Below, piece by piece: positions 19,322 to 57,938 of a DNA stretch of 64,000 bases. The DNA is from a bacterium (GTDB lineage Bacteria; UBA8248): contig OZ251456.1 of the NCBI GenBank assembly GCA_965242545.1, positions 2,618,775 to 2,682,774 of the forward strand, given 5' to 3'. The notes below the pieces were generated by a model, which was given only the letters and a program-made list of their open reading frames with translations, was not told where the DNA came from and made no database searches. Positions within the stretch are counted from its first letter, which is position 1, and every line of letters starts with the position of its first letter. A program made the translations under genes and the position numbers.

Positions 19322-19407
19322 GGAGGGATGGCCGAGCGGGCGAAGGCGGTGGTCTTGAAAACCACTGAGCGAAAGCTCCGGGGGTTCGAATCCCTCTCCC
19401 TCCGCCA
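19322..19407 (+). tRNA. tRNA-Ser (anticodon TGA)
   Basis: GGAGGGA/TCCCTCC acceptor stem, loop CTTGAAA, long variable arm, GTTCGAATC, G discriminator, CCA. Confidence 0.96.
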
Positions 19408-19449: not shown

Positions 19450-19541
19450 GGAGAGATGGCCGAGTGGCTGAAGGCGCTCGCCTGCTAAGCGAGTAGGCCG
19501 GGAAACCGGCCTCGAGGGTTCGAATCCCTCTCTCTCCGCCA
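19450..19541 (+). tRNA. tRNA-Ser (anticodon GCT)
   Basis: GGAGAGA/TCTCTCC stem, loop CTGCTAA, long variable arm, GTTCGAATC, CCA. Confidence 0.96.
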
Positions 19542-23886: not shown

Positions 23887-24017
23887 CCGCGAAGGAGCCG
23901 ACCGGCCAGGCGACCTCGCGGCGCCCGGGAGGGTCCGCTTGCCGCTGCTTCCTTCCGGACCTGACGGGGTTCGCGGGCTCCCGCCGCGCGAGACCCGGCC
24001 GGCCGGCTCCTTCGCGG
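23887..24017 (-). ncRNA. ffs: Signal recognition particle RNA (4.5S)
   Basis: Conserved TCAGGTCCGGAAGGAAGCAGC (minus strand, 23944-23964) within a long hairpin upstream of dnaX; ends approximate. Confidence 0.92.
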
Positions 24018-25185: not shown

Positions 25186-25947
25186 GTGAGCCATCCCCTG
25201 CCCCGCGAAATCGCGCCCGGCGTCTTCTGGCTCGGGGACTGCCTCGTCCAGCACTCCGGGGGCAAGATCTATCATTCCTACAACGCGGCCTTTCTGGTGG
25301 TCGGCTCGGAGGCTTCCATGCTGGTCGAGACGGGGCACCCCAAGGATTTTCCCGTCATCGAGCGGCAGATGCGGGAAATTCTCGACAGGAGCGGCGGAGC
25401 GCTCAGGCACCTGTTTCTCACCCATCAGGAGACGCCCCACTCGGGCGGCCTGGGCCGCGTGCTGGAGCGATATCCGGACCTCGCGATCCACGGGGACATG
25501 AGCGACTACCACCTGGCCTTCCCGCGTCACGAGGGCCGCTTCCGGGAGATGCGGACGGGCGAGACCATCGACCTGGGCGACAAGCGGTTCATGGCGGTGG
25601 AGCCGGTGATTCGGGACCTGCGGAGTTCACTCTGGGGGTTCGAGACCGGCGGGCGGACGCTCTTTCCCGGGGACGGCTTCGCCTACAGCCACTATCACGA
25701 GGACGGCCACTGCGGGCTGTTCGCCGAAGAAGCCGCCTCTCTCGACCTGGTGGACGTTCTGGGCGTGTTCGCCGAGCGCGCCCTGTTCTGGACCACCTTC
25801 ACCGACATGAACCTCTACGCCGACAGGCTCGAGGAGCTGATGGACGCGCTGGACGTTCAGGTGGTCGCACCGACCCACGGCCTGCCCATCCGGGACGTCG
25901 CCCGCACCATGCCCCGGGTCAGAGAGGGCCTCGTCCGGGGCGAATGA
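25186..25947 (+). CDS. MBL-fold (ODP/flavodiiron-like) metalloprotein
   Basis: YNAAFL, LVETG, THQETPHSGG, LFPGDGF, APTHG. Confidence 0.75.
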   Translation: MSHPLPREIAPGVFWLGDCLVQHSGGKIYHSYNAAFLVVGSEASMLVETGHPKDFPVIERQMREILDRSGGALRHLFLTHQETPHSGGLGRVLERYPDLAIHGDMSDYHLAFPRHEGRFREMRTGETIDLGDKRFMAVEPVIRDLRSSLWGFETGGRTLFPGDGFAYSHYHEDGHCGLFAEEAASLDLVDVLGVFAERALFWTTFTDMNLYADRLEELMDALDVQVVAPTHGLPIRDVARTMPRVREGLVRGE

Positions 25948-26043: not shown

Positions 26044-26442
26044 CTAGACGTCCTCCACCAGCTCCCACAGCGTCCCCATCGTGCTCTTCGGCTTGATGAA
26101 GGCGATGAGGTGTCCGCCGAAGCCGCGCCGCGACTTCTCGTCGATGAGCTCGAAGCCCCGCGCCTTCAGCTCCGCCAGCGTGCCGTCGATGTTCTTCACG
26201 TCGAAGGCCACGTGGTGGAGACCCTCGTCGCGCGTCTCGATGAACCTGGCGAGGTCCGTCCCCTCCCTGAGGGGGGAGATGGGCTCGATGAGGTCGCCGC
26301 CCATATCCAGCATGGCCAGGTCGGTCGCGCCGTCGGCGGAAGTCTCGCGCGCGAGCAGCTTCGCGCCCGCTCCCTCATAGAGGGCGATGGCGGCGTCCAC
26401 GTCCTTCACCGCGACCCCGATGTGATGCACCTTGTCGAACAT
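26044..26442 (-). CDS. VOC family protein (methylmalonyl-CoA epimerase-like)
   Basis: HHIGVAV, EGLHHVAF, AFIKPKSTMGTLWELVE. Confidence 0.88.
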   Translation of the reverse strand: MFDKVHHIGVAVKDVDAAIALYEGAGAKLLARETSADGATDLAMLDMGGDLIEPISPLREGTDLARFIETRDEGLHHVAFDVKNIDGTLAELKARGFELIDEKSRRGFGGHLIAFIKPKSTMGTLWELVEDV

Positions 26443-26679: not shown

Positions 26680-27240
26680 ATGGAAGGGCCGATTGACGGA
26701 CACAGCACCTCCACGACGCCCGGCGAGCGCGTCATCGACAAGCCGGAGCTCCCCGCGCGGGGACTCTACACGGACAACACCGTCCGCGCCGAGATGGTCG
26801 AAGGCGCCCTGCAGCTCAAGCGCGGCGTCGCCGGGGAATACGAAATCTTCTGCGACGAGGGGGCGCAGATCGGCGGAACGGCGAAATACCCCACGCCGAT
26901 GGCCTATCTGGCGATGGCGACGGGGTTCTGACTGCTCACCCAGGTGTCGCGGTACGCGCACATGATGAAGCTCTCCATCAAGGGGGCGAGCGTTTCCGTC
27001 CGGTTCCGCAAGACCCTGGGCGGCTCCGTCCTCAAGGGGACGGTGTTCAACAAGTGGCAGGGCGTGGACACCCATCTCCGGGTGGAATCGGACGAGCCCG
27101 CCGACAGGCTCGCCCACCTGATCAAGAACGCCAAGAACGGCTGCTTCGCCGAGAGCCTCATCGCCGAGCCGGTTCCCCTGCGCTCCACCGTGGAGGTGAA
27201 CGGGGAGCCGTTCCGCATCGAGGGCGTGACGGACGATTAG
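26680..27240 (+). CDS. OsmC-like selenoprotein (Sec at TGA 26929-26931)
   Basis: The two track ORFs are in one frame, joined by TGA: TPMAYLAMATGF-U-LLTQVSRY, at the first catalytic Cys position of OsmC; second Cys in AKNGCFAE; SECIS-like hairpin follows. Confidence 0.82.
26941..26964 (+). promoter_or_regulatory. Putative bacterial SECIS element
   Basis: GTG-T(bulge)-CGCG-GTA-CGCG-CAC hairpin starting 12 nt after the TGA; G-containing loop and bulged U as in the E. coli fdhF SECIS. Confidence 0.7.
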
Positions 27241-27313
27241 CCCCGGGCCGCCCGCAGCGGCGCGCCGGGCGCCGTGAAAACGCCGCGTCCGCCCCTTTTC
27301 GCATGGAGTGATC

Positions 27314-27781
27314 ATGGACTGCTTCAGCGCTTCGGAAGACGTCGCCTTCGGCTCGCAGCCGGCGCCGGAGGATTTGAAGACGCTCGCCGCCCAAGGCGTC
27401 AGGACCATCATCAACACCCGCTTTCCCGACGAGGATCAGGGCGAGCTTCCCCCCGATCGCGCGAGGGCGGAGGCGGAGGCGCTGGGGATGCGCTACGTCA
27501 ACGTCCCCGTCTCGCCGGTCGAGTTCAGCCCCGCCTCCCTCGCCGAAGTCAGCCGCGCCCTGCGCGAGGCGAAGCCCCGCGGTCCCGCCTTCGTCCACTG
27601 AAAGGCGACGGGGCGGGCCGGGATTTGCTCGCTGAATCATCTGGCGGAGGAGAACGGTTGGACGGCGGAGGAGATGGAGCGGGCGGCCGACGCCACCGGC
27701 TTCGACTGGCGCGCCGCGCCCCTCGCGGAGAAGTTCCGGGAGTTCTTCGCGGGGCGGGGAAGTAAGAACGTGAGAGATTAA
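27314..27781 (+). CDS. DUF442/PTP-like phosphatase or sulfurtransferase selenoprotein (Sec at TGA 27599-27601)
   Basis: GSQP...GVRTIINTR...E...GMRYVNVPV...PAFVH-U-KATGRA; frame stays open 59 more codons to TAA 27779-27781; GGAG RBS before ATG 27314. Confidence 0.78.
27613..27632 (+). promoter_or_regulatory. Putative bacterial SECIS element
   Basis: GCGGGC-CGGGATTT-GCTCGC hairpin starting 11 nt after the TGA. Confidence 0.55.
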
Positions 27782-27979: not shown

Positions 27980-29119
27980 GTGCCCAGAACACAACGAGTT
28001 GCCCGGTTGCACCTCCCGGCTCTGAAAATCAAAGGGTTTCGCGGAGTCAAGAGTCTCTTCATCCCAAAACTGGGCCGCGTAACCCTGCTCGCCGGAAAGA
28101 ACAGCGTCGGAAAGACCTCCGTCCTTGAAGCGGTTGCCATATTCGCCGCACGTGGTCGTCGCTCCGCTCTTTCAGACGTGTTGGAAGAACGCAACGAATT
28201 GCTCACGATGATAGACGAGGATGGCGATGAGTACTCGGCGCCTAATGTAACGGCCATCTTCCATGGGCGGGACGCCTCAGAAAATCCATCCATCGTGATT
28301 GGTCCATCAACAAAGAAAGACCAACTCACGATCAAGAGGACTTCTCTTAGCGCTATCCCAGAAGAACAGTGGCTGGACATTATTAAAGATTTGGGACCCG
28401 AGCATGACGACGATGATTTGGCGTTGATTAAAGTCGTATTTCGAGGGAAGGAGTATATGTTCCCTTGGGCGGATTTCAAAAATCGGTTCTGGCGACGGCG
28501 TATGCGGAATCTCATTACGGAATCAGAACCACCGGCAGAAATACCATGCAAGACTCTGGGGCCGGGGTTGTTGCCCAATCACGAGATAGCCCAGCTTTGG
28601 GACGAAATCGCGCTGACCAAAGACGAAGAGCAAGCAGTTGATGCGCTAAGACTAATCTTTAGGCATAAAATGGATCGAATTGCGGTCATCGGAAATCAAG
28701 AACATAGCTATAGGAGTCGCGGTCGCCGCGTTATCGTCAAGCTGAAAGATCACCCCCAACCCGTTCCTCTGAAAAGCCTCGGAGACGGCGCGATTCGCCT
28801 TTTCAGCGTCGCCTTGGCTCTGGCGAACAGCCGGGACGGCATCCTGCTGATCGACGAAGCGGAAAACGGCATCCATCATTCCGTGCAGTCGGATTTCTGG
28901 CGCATGGTTTTGCGAATGGCCCGCGAGAACAATACGCAGGTTCTGGCGACGACCCACAGTTGGGACTGCGTAAGGGGTTTCGCGCAAGCCGCAGCCGATG
29001 ACGAAAATAACGAGGGAATTCTCATTCGCCTTGAGCGGGATGACGAAGATATCCAGGCGGTCTTCTACTCCGAAGACGAACTCCAGATCGCTGCCGAGCA
29101 AGGCATTGATGTCCGGTAA
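27980..29119 (+). CDS. ABC/AAA_15-21 family ATPase (putative defence)
   Basis: GKNSVGKT, SLGDG, LLIDEAENGIH, ATTHS; lower GC. Confidence 0.88.
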   Translation: MPRTQRVARLHLPALKIKGFRGVKSLFIPKLGRVTLLAGKNSVGKTSVLEAVAIFAARGRRSALSDVLEERNELLTMIDEDGDEYSAPNVTAIFHGRDASENPSIVIGPSTKKDQLTIKRTSLSAIPEEQWLDIIKDLGPEHDDDDLALIKVVFRGKEYMFPWADFKNRFWRRRMRNLITESEPPAEIPCKTLGPGLLPNHEIAQLWDEIALTKDEEQAVDALRLIFRHKMDRIAVIGNQEHSYRSRGRRVIVKLKDHPQPVPLKSLGDGAIRLFSVALALANSRDGILLIDEAENGIHHSVQSDFWRMVLRMARENNTQVLATTHSWDCVRGFAQAAADDENNEGILIRLERDDEDIQAVFYSEDELQIAAEQGIDVR

Positions 29120-29765
29120 AAATATGCTCAAAGGGGATCCGCCGCCAATCCGGATCCTGCTGGTCGAAGGGCAGGATGATCGCCATTTCGTTCAGCAACT
29201 ATGGGACAAGCATTGCGCCGAAAAGCCGCCATTTTCCATATCAGACAAAGGCGGCGTCGGCAGTCTCATCGAAGCGATTCGTCTGGAAATCAAGGATTCC
29301 GGTAGAGAGGCTCTTGGAATCTTGGCGGACGCGAACGGCGACATCGCGCAAAAGTGGCAAGAAATAACCGATGAAATCAAAAAAGAGCGTGGCCATCTGA
29401 ATCTCAAATCAGATCAAATCCCTCGGAAGTCCAAGCCGGCCGGAACGATTATCGACTGCAAGCCGCGAATCGGAATCTGGTTGATGCCCGACAACAAATC
29501 GCCCGGCGAGCTCGAGGACTTCGCGGCGAAGATGGTGCCCAAGAATGATTCCGTCTGGCCTCTCTCCGAGGAATACATCGAAAATATCCCCAAGAATGAA
29601 CGCAAGTTCGCTCCCGACAAAACACCAAAAGCCAAGCTGTTCGCATGGCTCGCCGCGAGAAAGGAACCCGGCCGCATGGGAGCGGCCGTCGGCGCGGGTG
29701 ATTTAACCCTGAACAACGAGCCGAGCAGGAAATTTCTGAAATGGCTGTCCGAACTATTCCGATAA
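29109..29765 (+). CDS. DUF3226-like TOPRIM-related protein
   Basis: LLVEGQDD, GILADAN, GIWLMPDNKSPGELEDF; overlaps the ATPase stop. Confidence 0.75.
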   Translation: MSGKNMLKGDPPPIRILLVEGQDDRHFVQQLWDKHCAEKPPFSISDKGGVGSLIEAIRLEIKDSGREALGILADANGDIAQKWQEITDEIKKERGHLNLKSDQIPRKSKPAGTIIDCKPRIGIWLMPDNKSPGELEDFAAKMVPKNDSVWPLSEEYIENIPKNERKFAPDKTPKAKLFAWLAARKEPGRMGAAVGAGDLTLNNEPSRKFLKWLSELFR

Positions 29766-57845: not shown

Positions 57846-57938
57846 TGGCGGAGAGGGAGGGATTCGAACCCTCGAGGCGCCTTGTGAGCGCCTATACGAT
57901 TTCCAGTCGTACTCCTTCGGCCTCTCGGACACCTCTCC
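57846..57938 (-). tRNA. tRNA-Ser (anticodon GGA)
   Basis: Minus strand GGAGAGG...CTGGAAA loop, long variable arm, GTTCGAATC, CCA. Confidence 0.96.

Follow-up and report, generated by a model that had tools for sequence, protein, structure and literature searches.

A predicted selenocysteine-containing member of the DUF442 branch of the protein-tyrosine-phosphatase fold, encoded beside an OsmC-like selenoprotein gene in a UBA8248 bacterium

The locus and its reading frame

We analysed a 64,000-nt stretch of contig OZ251456.1 (assembly GCA_965242545.1, GTDB lineage UBA8248; positions 2,618,775 to 2,682,774, forward strand), hereafter the window, from a genome that consists of a single 3.09-Mb contig with 65% G+C. 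The window contains a short gene of the DUF442 family that is interrupted in frame by a TGA, directly downstream of an OsmC-like gene with an in-frame TGA of its own. Judged from comparative sequence data, the DUF442 gene is very probably a real selenoprotein gene. Its features, in window coordinates, are as follows.

27305..27308, plus strand: GGAG, resembling a ribosome-binding site, 5 nt before the ATG (read off the sequence)
27314..27781, plus strand: full predicted selenoprotein gene, encoding a 155-codon DUF442 protein with the protein-tyrosine-phosphatase (PTP) fold, one UGA read through (translation, Pfam, AlphaFold2 model, Foldseek, dN/dS)
27596..27616, plus strand: catalytic P-loop codons H95-U96-K-A-T-G-R101, of the CX4R type (alignment of homologues, AlphaFold2 model)
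27599..27601, plus strand: predicted selenocysteine (Sec)-encoding UGA, codon 96 (conservation; Cys outside the lineage)
27612..27633, plus strand: predicted bacterial selenocysteine insertion sequence (SECIS) hairpin with a 7-bp stem, GGCGGGC/GCUCGCU, and the 8-nt loop CGGGAUUU (RNAalifold, fold energy, frozen codons)

From the ATG at 27314 the frame reads ..GPAFVH and meets the TGA at 27599-27601. Past this codon it stays open for 59 codons, K97 to D155, as far as a TAA at 27779-27781, giving a read-through protein of 155 residues. The initial annotation, which was made from the sequence without database searches, described an open reading frame (ORF) at 27314-27601 that stops after ..PAFVH and is followed by 59 open codons, and translation bears this out. 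It also held that gene callers would truncate the protein, as has indeed happened in the protein database, where 45 of 47 matches are exactly 95 residues long. Among the database proteins, P0066 (53 residues) is the post-TGA half of a relative that was called as a separate gene. In another, P0145 (94 residues), the first ~55 residues of a paralogue are followed directly by its C-terminal ~40, with the Sec region missing; either a deletion or an assembly error could account for it.

Conservation of the TGA and the selenocysteine machinery

The TGA is not a peculiarity of this assembly, a possibility that the initial annotation had raised. Within the genus, the gene occurs in 22 of 22 genomes (among 41 related genomes), mostly in two copies, and the TGA is present in every full-length match. 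A search of 51 species genomes of the phylum gave matches in 36, all from one family (35 of 41 genomes, the window's own uncounted; 0 of 9 in the other three families). The TGA is found in 57 of the 59 listed matches of this search, and the remaining two are partial (45 and 82 residues). We extracted 20 orthologues and 21 paralogues, the latter 38-51% identical to the window protein; codon 96 is TGA in 20 of 20 and 21 of 21, respectively. Contigs from four public runs confirm the window DNA. One contig, originating from a second study, departs from the window at 28 positions over the stretch; its two TGAs and its hairpin are intact. Ten of these differences lie within the gene, and counting by hand puts 9 of them at third codon positions, including the two located downstream of the TGA.

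For the codons after the TGA, whose usage the initial annotation called host-like, the analysis turned to substitution rates and third-position variation. Among the orthologues, the ratio of non-synonymous to synonymous substitution rates (dN/dS) is 0.158 for codons 1-95 and 0.185 for codons 97-148, and the variable columns downstream of the TGA number 13, 13 and 37 of 52 at the first, second and third codon positions. The downstream conservation proposed at the outset is thus seen as purifying selection. TGA has not been reassigned, for 9 of the 41 relatives (5 of 20 orthologues, 4 of 21 paralogues) also use it to terminate this very gene.

The machinery for Sec insertion, which had been named as a point to check, is encoded in the genome. 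A tRNA-Sec (77.6 bits; anticodon tca according to ARAGORN), selA (556.6 bits), selB (372.8 bits) and selD (330.4 bits) all score above their curated cut-offs, and the selA, selB and EF-type matches have no internal stops. The selD gene (G000:C1:375815-376780, plus strand; genome coordinates) has an in-frame TGA at ~375845 (..RAGG-U-GSKLG..) followed by a hairpin, and SelD is therefore itself a selenoprotein in this genome.

A conserved hairpin downstream of the TGA

The predicted hairpin begins at 27612, the 11th base past the TGA, in agreement with the initial annotation, which had placed it 11 nt after that codon. Its stem pairs 27612-27618 with 27627-27633 around the loop CGGGAUUU (27619-27626), which begins C-G-G, and the same nucleotides also code R-A-G-I-C-S-L. 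According to section 5 of PMC13188914, the bacterial SECIS (bSECIS) consensus comprises a loop of 3-9 nt, a stem of 4-16 bp, a G in the first two loop positions, 16-37 nt between UGA and loop, and a minimum free energy of at most -7.5 kcal/mol. The window hairpin falls within this description in every respect: its loop has 8 nt with a G at position 2, its stem has 7 bp, the loop lies 17 nt from the UGA, and the hairpin on its own folds at -10.5 kcal/mol.

RNAalifold, applied to 17 sequences from both clades and more distant genera, returns the 7-bp hairpin as the sole conserved structure. One stem pair alternates between G-U (10 sequences) and A-U (7 sequences); in the more distant relatives the stem is unchanged and loop positions 5 and 7 vary. 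Synonymous sites within the hairpin are frozen. The codons for A102, G103, I104, C105 and S106 each have a single form in 41 of 41 sequences, from clades that are ~45% identical, and the R101 codon is CGG in 25 and CGA in 16 of the 41, a change that swaps the G-U pair for A-U. Outside the hairpin, at least two codons are used in 20 of the 21 degenerate columns with an invariant residue (41 sequences).

Family assignment and predicted structure

Pfam PF04273 (DUF442, BLH_phosphatase) aligns to residues 7-102 of the read-through protein, a match that spans the TGA, with 47.1 bits (cut-off 26.1). HMMER, run exhaustively, collected 1986 proteins at E <= 0.001. In an alignment of 24 full-length homologues across the TGA, the U96 column is Cys in at least 90% and R101 is invariant. 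The proposal of a DUF442/PTP-fold enzyme with TGA at the catalytic Cys of an HCxxGxR loop is therefore upheld by both the domain match and the alignment, which also provides the Cys/TGA pairing that had been sought at this column. Homologues do not end at the TGA position, as they might have done if the codon were a stop, and the full-length Cys forms align their Cys there. The nearest Cys form, P0050, has 162 residues and is 50% identical to the window protein.

The loop U-K-A-T-G-R is one residue shorter than the C(X)5R signature of classical Cys-based PTPs. The initial annotation correctly placed the Arg five residues after Sec and set this spacing against canonical CX5R; it is no oddity, as the CX4R loop holds throughout the DUF442 family in the homologue alignment and is also the spacing of the solved protein NMA1982 (C95(X)4R100).

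The profile for a PDB search and an AlphaFold2 model were built from the window protein and the 24 full-length homologues. The model has a predicted local distance difference test score (pLDDT) of 92.4 and a predicted template modelling score (pTM) of 0.88. U96 sits at the end of strand 92-96, which leads into helix 100-114, and two further helices, 118-127 and 138-151, are likewise encoded after the TGA; these three helices score above 90, the tail excepted. The model thus has a PTP-like fold with the C(X)4R loop between strand and helix, U replacing C. Termination at codon 95 would cost the protein its catalytic loop and a third of the fold. The PDB profile search found two solved DUF442 structures, 2f46_A (E 3.3e-20) and 3gxg (E 1.9e-15). 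Foldseek returned DUF442 structures together with dual-specificity phosphatases (3gxh_A, E 2.7e-8; 2f46_A, TMq 0.74 with a root-mean-square deviation of 2.5 A).

Distribution of selenocysteine and cysteine forms

Scanning the prokaryotes with one genome for each species, we found 113 relatives and kept 80 loci. The codon at the site is TGA in 32 loci, Cys in 46 (8 called by pattern and 38 read from translations), Ser in 1 and unreadable in 1. All 32 TGA loci come from records labelled Nitrospinota, Nitrospinaceae, Nitrospinae or plain 'bacterium'; the Cys loci were contributed by Acidobacteriota, Planctomycetota, Verrucomicrobia and Chloroflexota, among other groups. Therefore, as far as the sampled genomes go, the predicted Sec form is confined to the lineage of the window.

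The OsmC-like gene, the paralogue and other neighbours

The gene upstream of the DUF442 gene is predicted to encode a second selenoprotein, with these features.

26680..27240, plus strand: OsmC-like selenoprotein gene, motif GF-U-LLT, start codon uncertain (NF041052, Pfam OsmC)
26929..26931, plus strand: predicted Sec-encoding UGA of the OsmC-like gene, codon 84 (translation; GF-U-LLT in 20 of 20 loci)
26944..26961, plus strand: candidate SECIS hairpin of the OsmC-like gene, GUGUCGCG-GUA-CGCGCAC region (single-sequence fold)

It matches NF041052 (OsmC_like_Se) with 166.9 bits against a cut-off of 95, and Pfam OsmC also matches. Gene callers would split it into ORFs of 83 and 98 residues. At 20 of 20 orthologue loci the DUF442 gene follows a co-directional OsmC-like gene. 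The gap between them, 73 nt in the window, measures 24-77 nt at 18 of these loci, so the two genes probably form one transcription unit and probably serve one thiol, selenol or peroxide process; at the remaining two loci it is 214 and 700 nt.

The window genome carries a paralogous DUF442 selenoprotein gene (G000:C1:906741-907193, plus strand; L063:4242-4697) with the motif HUKGMGRAGICSL. This gene ends in TGA, its hairpin nucleotides are the same as those of the window gene, and it scores 30.7 bits with PF04273 and 45.3 bits with TIGR01244. Its neighbours are ilvD, a gene for a thiamine pyrophosphate (TPP) enzyme and a Transglut_core2 gene, and they suggest no pathway. Two other paralogues, L061 and L062, read HUKGVRRAG, with Arg where the other 39 compared sequences have the loop Gly; their hairpin nucleotides are otherwise unchanged.

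A Transglut_core2 (SirB1-like) gene precedes the DUF442 paralogue in 20 of 20 loci and in the window genome's own copy. It is also found upstream in 6 of 6 loci of more distant relatives and in 0 of 20 orthologue loci, and no OsmC-like gene was found within 1.5 kb of the paralogue and distant-relative loci. As the Transglut_core2 neighbour is older and wider, the pairing with OsmC looks like a later arrangement within one genus.

An MBL-fold gene and a glyoxalase-fold gene lie upstream of both selenoprotein genes, and neither shows an evident link with them; the glyoxalase-fold gene (26044-26442, minus strand) encodes a methylmalonyl-CoA-epimerase-like protein that scores 105.4 bits with TIGR03081, just below the cut-off of 114.95. 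Directly after the DUF442 gene, at 27980-29765 (plus strand), two overlapping genes with a G+C content down to 52-55% match the PADLOC candidate system PDC-M38 (A, AbiLi-like AAA ATPase, E 2.3e-85; B, DUF3226, E 6e-35), and this region is probably an inserted defence islet. Rfam detects a bacterial small signal recognition particle (SRP) RNA and three tRNA genes, at 23901-24000 (minus strand); 19322-19404 and 19450-19538 (plus strand); and 57849-57938 (minus strand).

Proposed function

We consider it reasonably probable that the product of the window gene is a cytoplasmic selenoprotein of 155 residues that belongs to the DUF442 (PF04273, TIGR01244-like) branch of the PTP fold and takes part in sulfane-sulfur transfer. 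Following established bacterial Sec decoding, UGA codon 96 would be read as selenocysteine, with SelB and Sec-tRNA(Sec) binding the hairpin at 27612-27633 inside the coding sequence, its apical loop 17 nt past the UGA. Sec would stand in for the Cys that acts as nucleophile in the H-C-x-x-G-x-R loop. If it behaves like the Cys-type DUF442 domains that have been assayed, the selenolate would most likely take up sulfane sulfur from a donor (persulfide, polysulfide or thiosulfate), hold it as a Se-S intermediate in the oxyanion-binding loop, and then pass it to a thiol or sulfite acceptor. Our inferences from these data concern three points: the insertion of selenium, the substrate, and a possible link with the OsmC-like protein.

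For the function taken by itself, sulfane-sulfur transfer is the job that we slightly favour. The DUF442 domain of Xylella Blh moves the sulfur of thiosulfate to cyanide or glutathione (GSH), and full-length Blh produces 18.1 umol thiocyanate (SCN) per mg per min (PMC5823870); the DUF442 domain of the Cupriavidus pinatubonensis SQR is a rhodanese that depends on its active-site Cys94 (PMC9163753). Fusions of Cys homologues to MBL and rhodanese domains exist (P0054, P0055). It is these assays, together with the fusions, that tip the balance towards sulfane-sulfur transfer. The initial annotation had left the choice between a Sec-dependent phosphatase and a sulfur/selenium transferase; its Sec enzyme stands, and published enzymology favours sulfur transfer over phosphatase activity.

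Points of doubt and alternative explanations

Several results weigh against the interpretation as a Sec-dependent sulfurtransferase. As regards the hairpin, RNAalifold found compensatory double changes in 0 of 7 stem pairs (17 sequences), and the invariance of the stem could be due in part to the conserved residues RAGICSL. The surrounding 85-nt stretch is no more stable than its shuffles (z +1.08; 177 of 200 fold at least as well), therefore the existence of a hairpin proves nothing alone; in the sequence comparisons its significance appears to rest on conservation, especially the frozen synonymous sites, and not on stability. Rfam reported no SECIS family in the whole window at gathering thresholds, and in 26850-27750, with E up to 10, it gave only three chance-level matches (E >= 1.4) and no SECIS family. 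The compared genomes are kin and the counts are not independent trials, so they overstate the independent support. In the family assignment, the protein does not reach the cut-off of the NCBIfam sulfur-transferase model TIGR01244 (49.5 bits over residues 7-133; cut-off 85.85) and is therefore termed TIGR01244-like, not a member. It scores 53.3 bits over residues 7-135 with the Blh model NF040641, whose cut-off is 625; this match is limited to positions 4-130 of the 423-position profile, and the dioxygenase part is unmatched. In the neighbourhood of the gene we found no sulfur-oxidation partner, with no sqr or pdo adjoining. The MBL-fold protein at 25186-25947 (plus strand) looks like the ODP/flavorubredoxin (flavodiiron) type and not like a persulfide dioxygenase (PDO), and when the genome was searched with P0054, a PDO-rhodanese-DUF442 fusion, the MBL and rhodanese matches returned were all weak. 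Lastly, NMA1982, the one stand-alone member of DUF442 with a detailed study behind it, is a tyrosine phosphatase according to its authors (PMC10716126).

The last point leads to the possibility that the protein is a real selenoprotein working as a phosphatase, in which Sec96 would attack a phosphate ester and a selenophosphoryl intermediate would arise within the CX4R loop, by the mechanism put forward for the Cys enzyme NMA1982. In both fold and P-loop the protein resembles PTPs, whose classical members conserve a general-acid Asp in a WPD-like loop; Glu70 of the window clade occupies the position of the NMA1982 general acid D71 (alignment read by eye), and section 7 of PMC10716126 reports that the C95S and R100A variants of NMA1982 lose phosphatase activity on 6,8-difluoro-4-methylumbelliferyl phosphate (DiFMUP). 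However, the NMA1982 activity given there is extremely low (kcat/Km 1.26 per M per s on DiFMUP), D71A loses only 50% of it, and the paralogue clade has Asn, and no acid, at the D71-equivalent position (read by eye, with no formal alignment). The assayed DUF442 domains give solid sulfurtransferase rates, and the fusion partners of the Cys homologues are rhodanese and MBL domains, not kinases. We regard a phosphatase as unlikely. That the DUF442 selenoprotein instead serves its OsmC-like neighbour, as a reductant or resolving selenol of an OsmC-type peroxidase (a Se-Se/Se-S relay) or as a selenium carrier, would fit the directly upstream Sec gene on the same strand in every orthologue locus and the short gap at most of these loci (18 of 20). 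Section 9 of PMC13188914 also points out that selenoprotein genes lying together frequently share a pathway. Yet this pairing is limited to one clade of one genus, and the wider, older arrangement has the Transglut_core2 gene upstream and no OsmC-like gene within 1.5 kb, which makes such a service doubtful. Its boldest form would combine the first natural PTP-fold enzyme with a Sec P-loop nucleophile and an OsmC-like selenoperoxidase in a dedicated two-selenoprotein relay, the DUF442 selenol regenerating or loading the OsmC-like selenol via Se-Se or Se-S, or shuttling selenium. We think this improbable; if true, the relay or shuttle would be a redox or chalcogen-transfer module so far undescribed.

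It is highly improbable that the gene encodes no selenoprotein at all. On such a reading the TGA would be either a genuine stop, whether through a pseudogene, an assembly error or a true product of 95 residues, or a standard amino acid codon throughout the genome. Gene callers do stop at the TGA, with the 95-residue form prevailing in the database, and the energy of the hairpin is unremarkable. Nevertheless, a protein of 95 residues would lose the entire P-loop together with three helices. In all relatives examined, purifying selection has kept both the TGA and the frame after it; TGA terminates the same gene in some of these relatives, and the genome has a complete Sec system. Pseudogene, sequencing error and genome-wide TGA reassignment are contradicted by the comparative data, and we rejected them.

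Comparison with known systems

The initial annotation did not recall this fold among the known selenoprotein families, which agrees with the 2026 catalogue of 119 prokaryotic selenoprotein families and subfamilies (Table 1 of PMC13188914), where there is no PF04273, TIGR01244, phosphatase or non-rhodanese sulfur-transferase entry. No selenoprotein-specific model of NCBIfam release 20 matches the window protein. In the full-text literature we found no link of the DUF442 family, or of the PTP fold with CX4R, to selenocysteine; supplements and some papers lie outside this scope, and an earlier listing is possible. BSepDB (PMC13326102) covers previously reported selenoprotein families only, and three genomes of Nitrospinota/Nitrospinaceae/Nitrospinae (GTDB UBA8248) are among its ten richest, with 48-54 selenoprotein genes each. 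The DUF442 selenoprotein would extend the 119-family catalogue by one family and apparently by a fold that is absent from it. Once the UGA is taken to encode Sec, at least 36 of 51 species genomes of the phylum regain a complete enzyme. The upstream gene, by comparison, belongs to a catalogued family (NF041052; 'OsmC-like protein, UxxT'), its motif being U-L-L-T. The pairing of an OsmC-like with a DUF442 selenoprotein was not found in the accessible literature.

The nearest known counterparts are the N-terminal domains of Blh (Xylella/Agrobacterium) and of the C. pinatubonensis SQR. They share with the window protein PF04273, the HCxxGxR (CX4R) loop, a small PTP-like fold and a nucleophile at about residue 94-96, and the best NCBIfam matches of the window protein are Blh and TIGR01244. 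Unlike these domains, it has Sec in place of Cys and stands alone, fused to neither a dioxygenase nor SQR; it scores below the curated cut-offs of the Blh and TIGR01244 models, and its gene has no sqr or pdo beside it. The best solved match is NMA1982 of Neisseria meningitidis (PDB 2f46), which, like 3gxg/3gxh, is a stand-alone DUF442 protein of ~150 residues with a C(X)4R loop (C95-R-T-G-T-R100; PMC10716126). NMA1982 differs in having Cys, in being reported there as a secreted, weak tyrosine phosphatase, and in its ~22% identity to the window model. The Sec and Cys forms provide a natural pair for asking what selenium brings to a P-loop nucleophile, and they may help to decide whether DUF442 proteins are sulfurtransferases or phosphatases.

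A parallel exists in the rhodanese-domain selenoproteins, of which Table 1 of PMC13188914 lists forms 1-5. Their fold is unrelated (PF00581, NF041203, NF045694), and the window protein matches none of these models. They nonetheless offer an earlier example of a sulfurtransferase with Sec at its catalytic position, and the chemistry that the two groups likely share is Se-bound sulfane sulfur.

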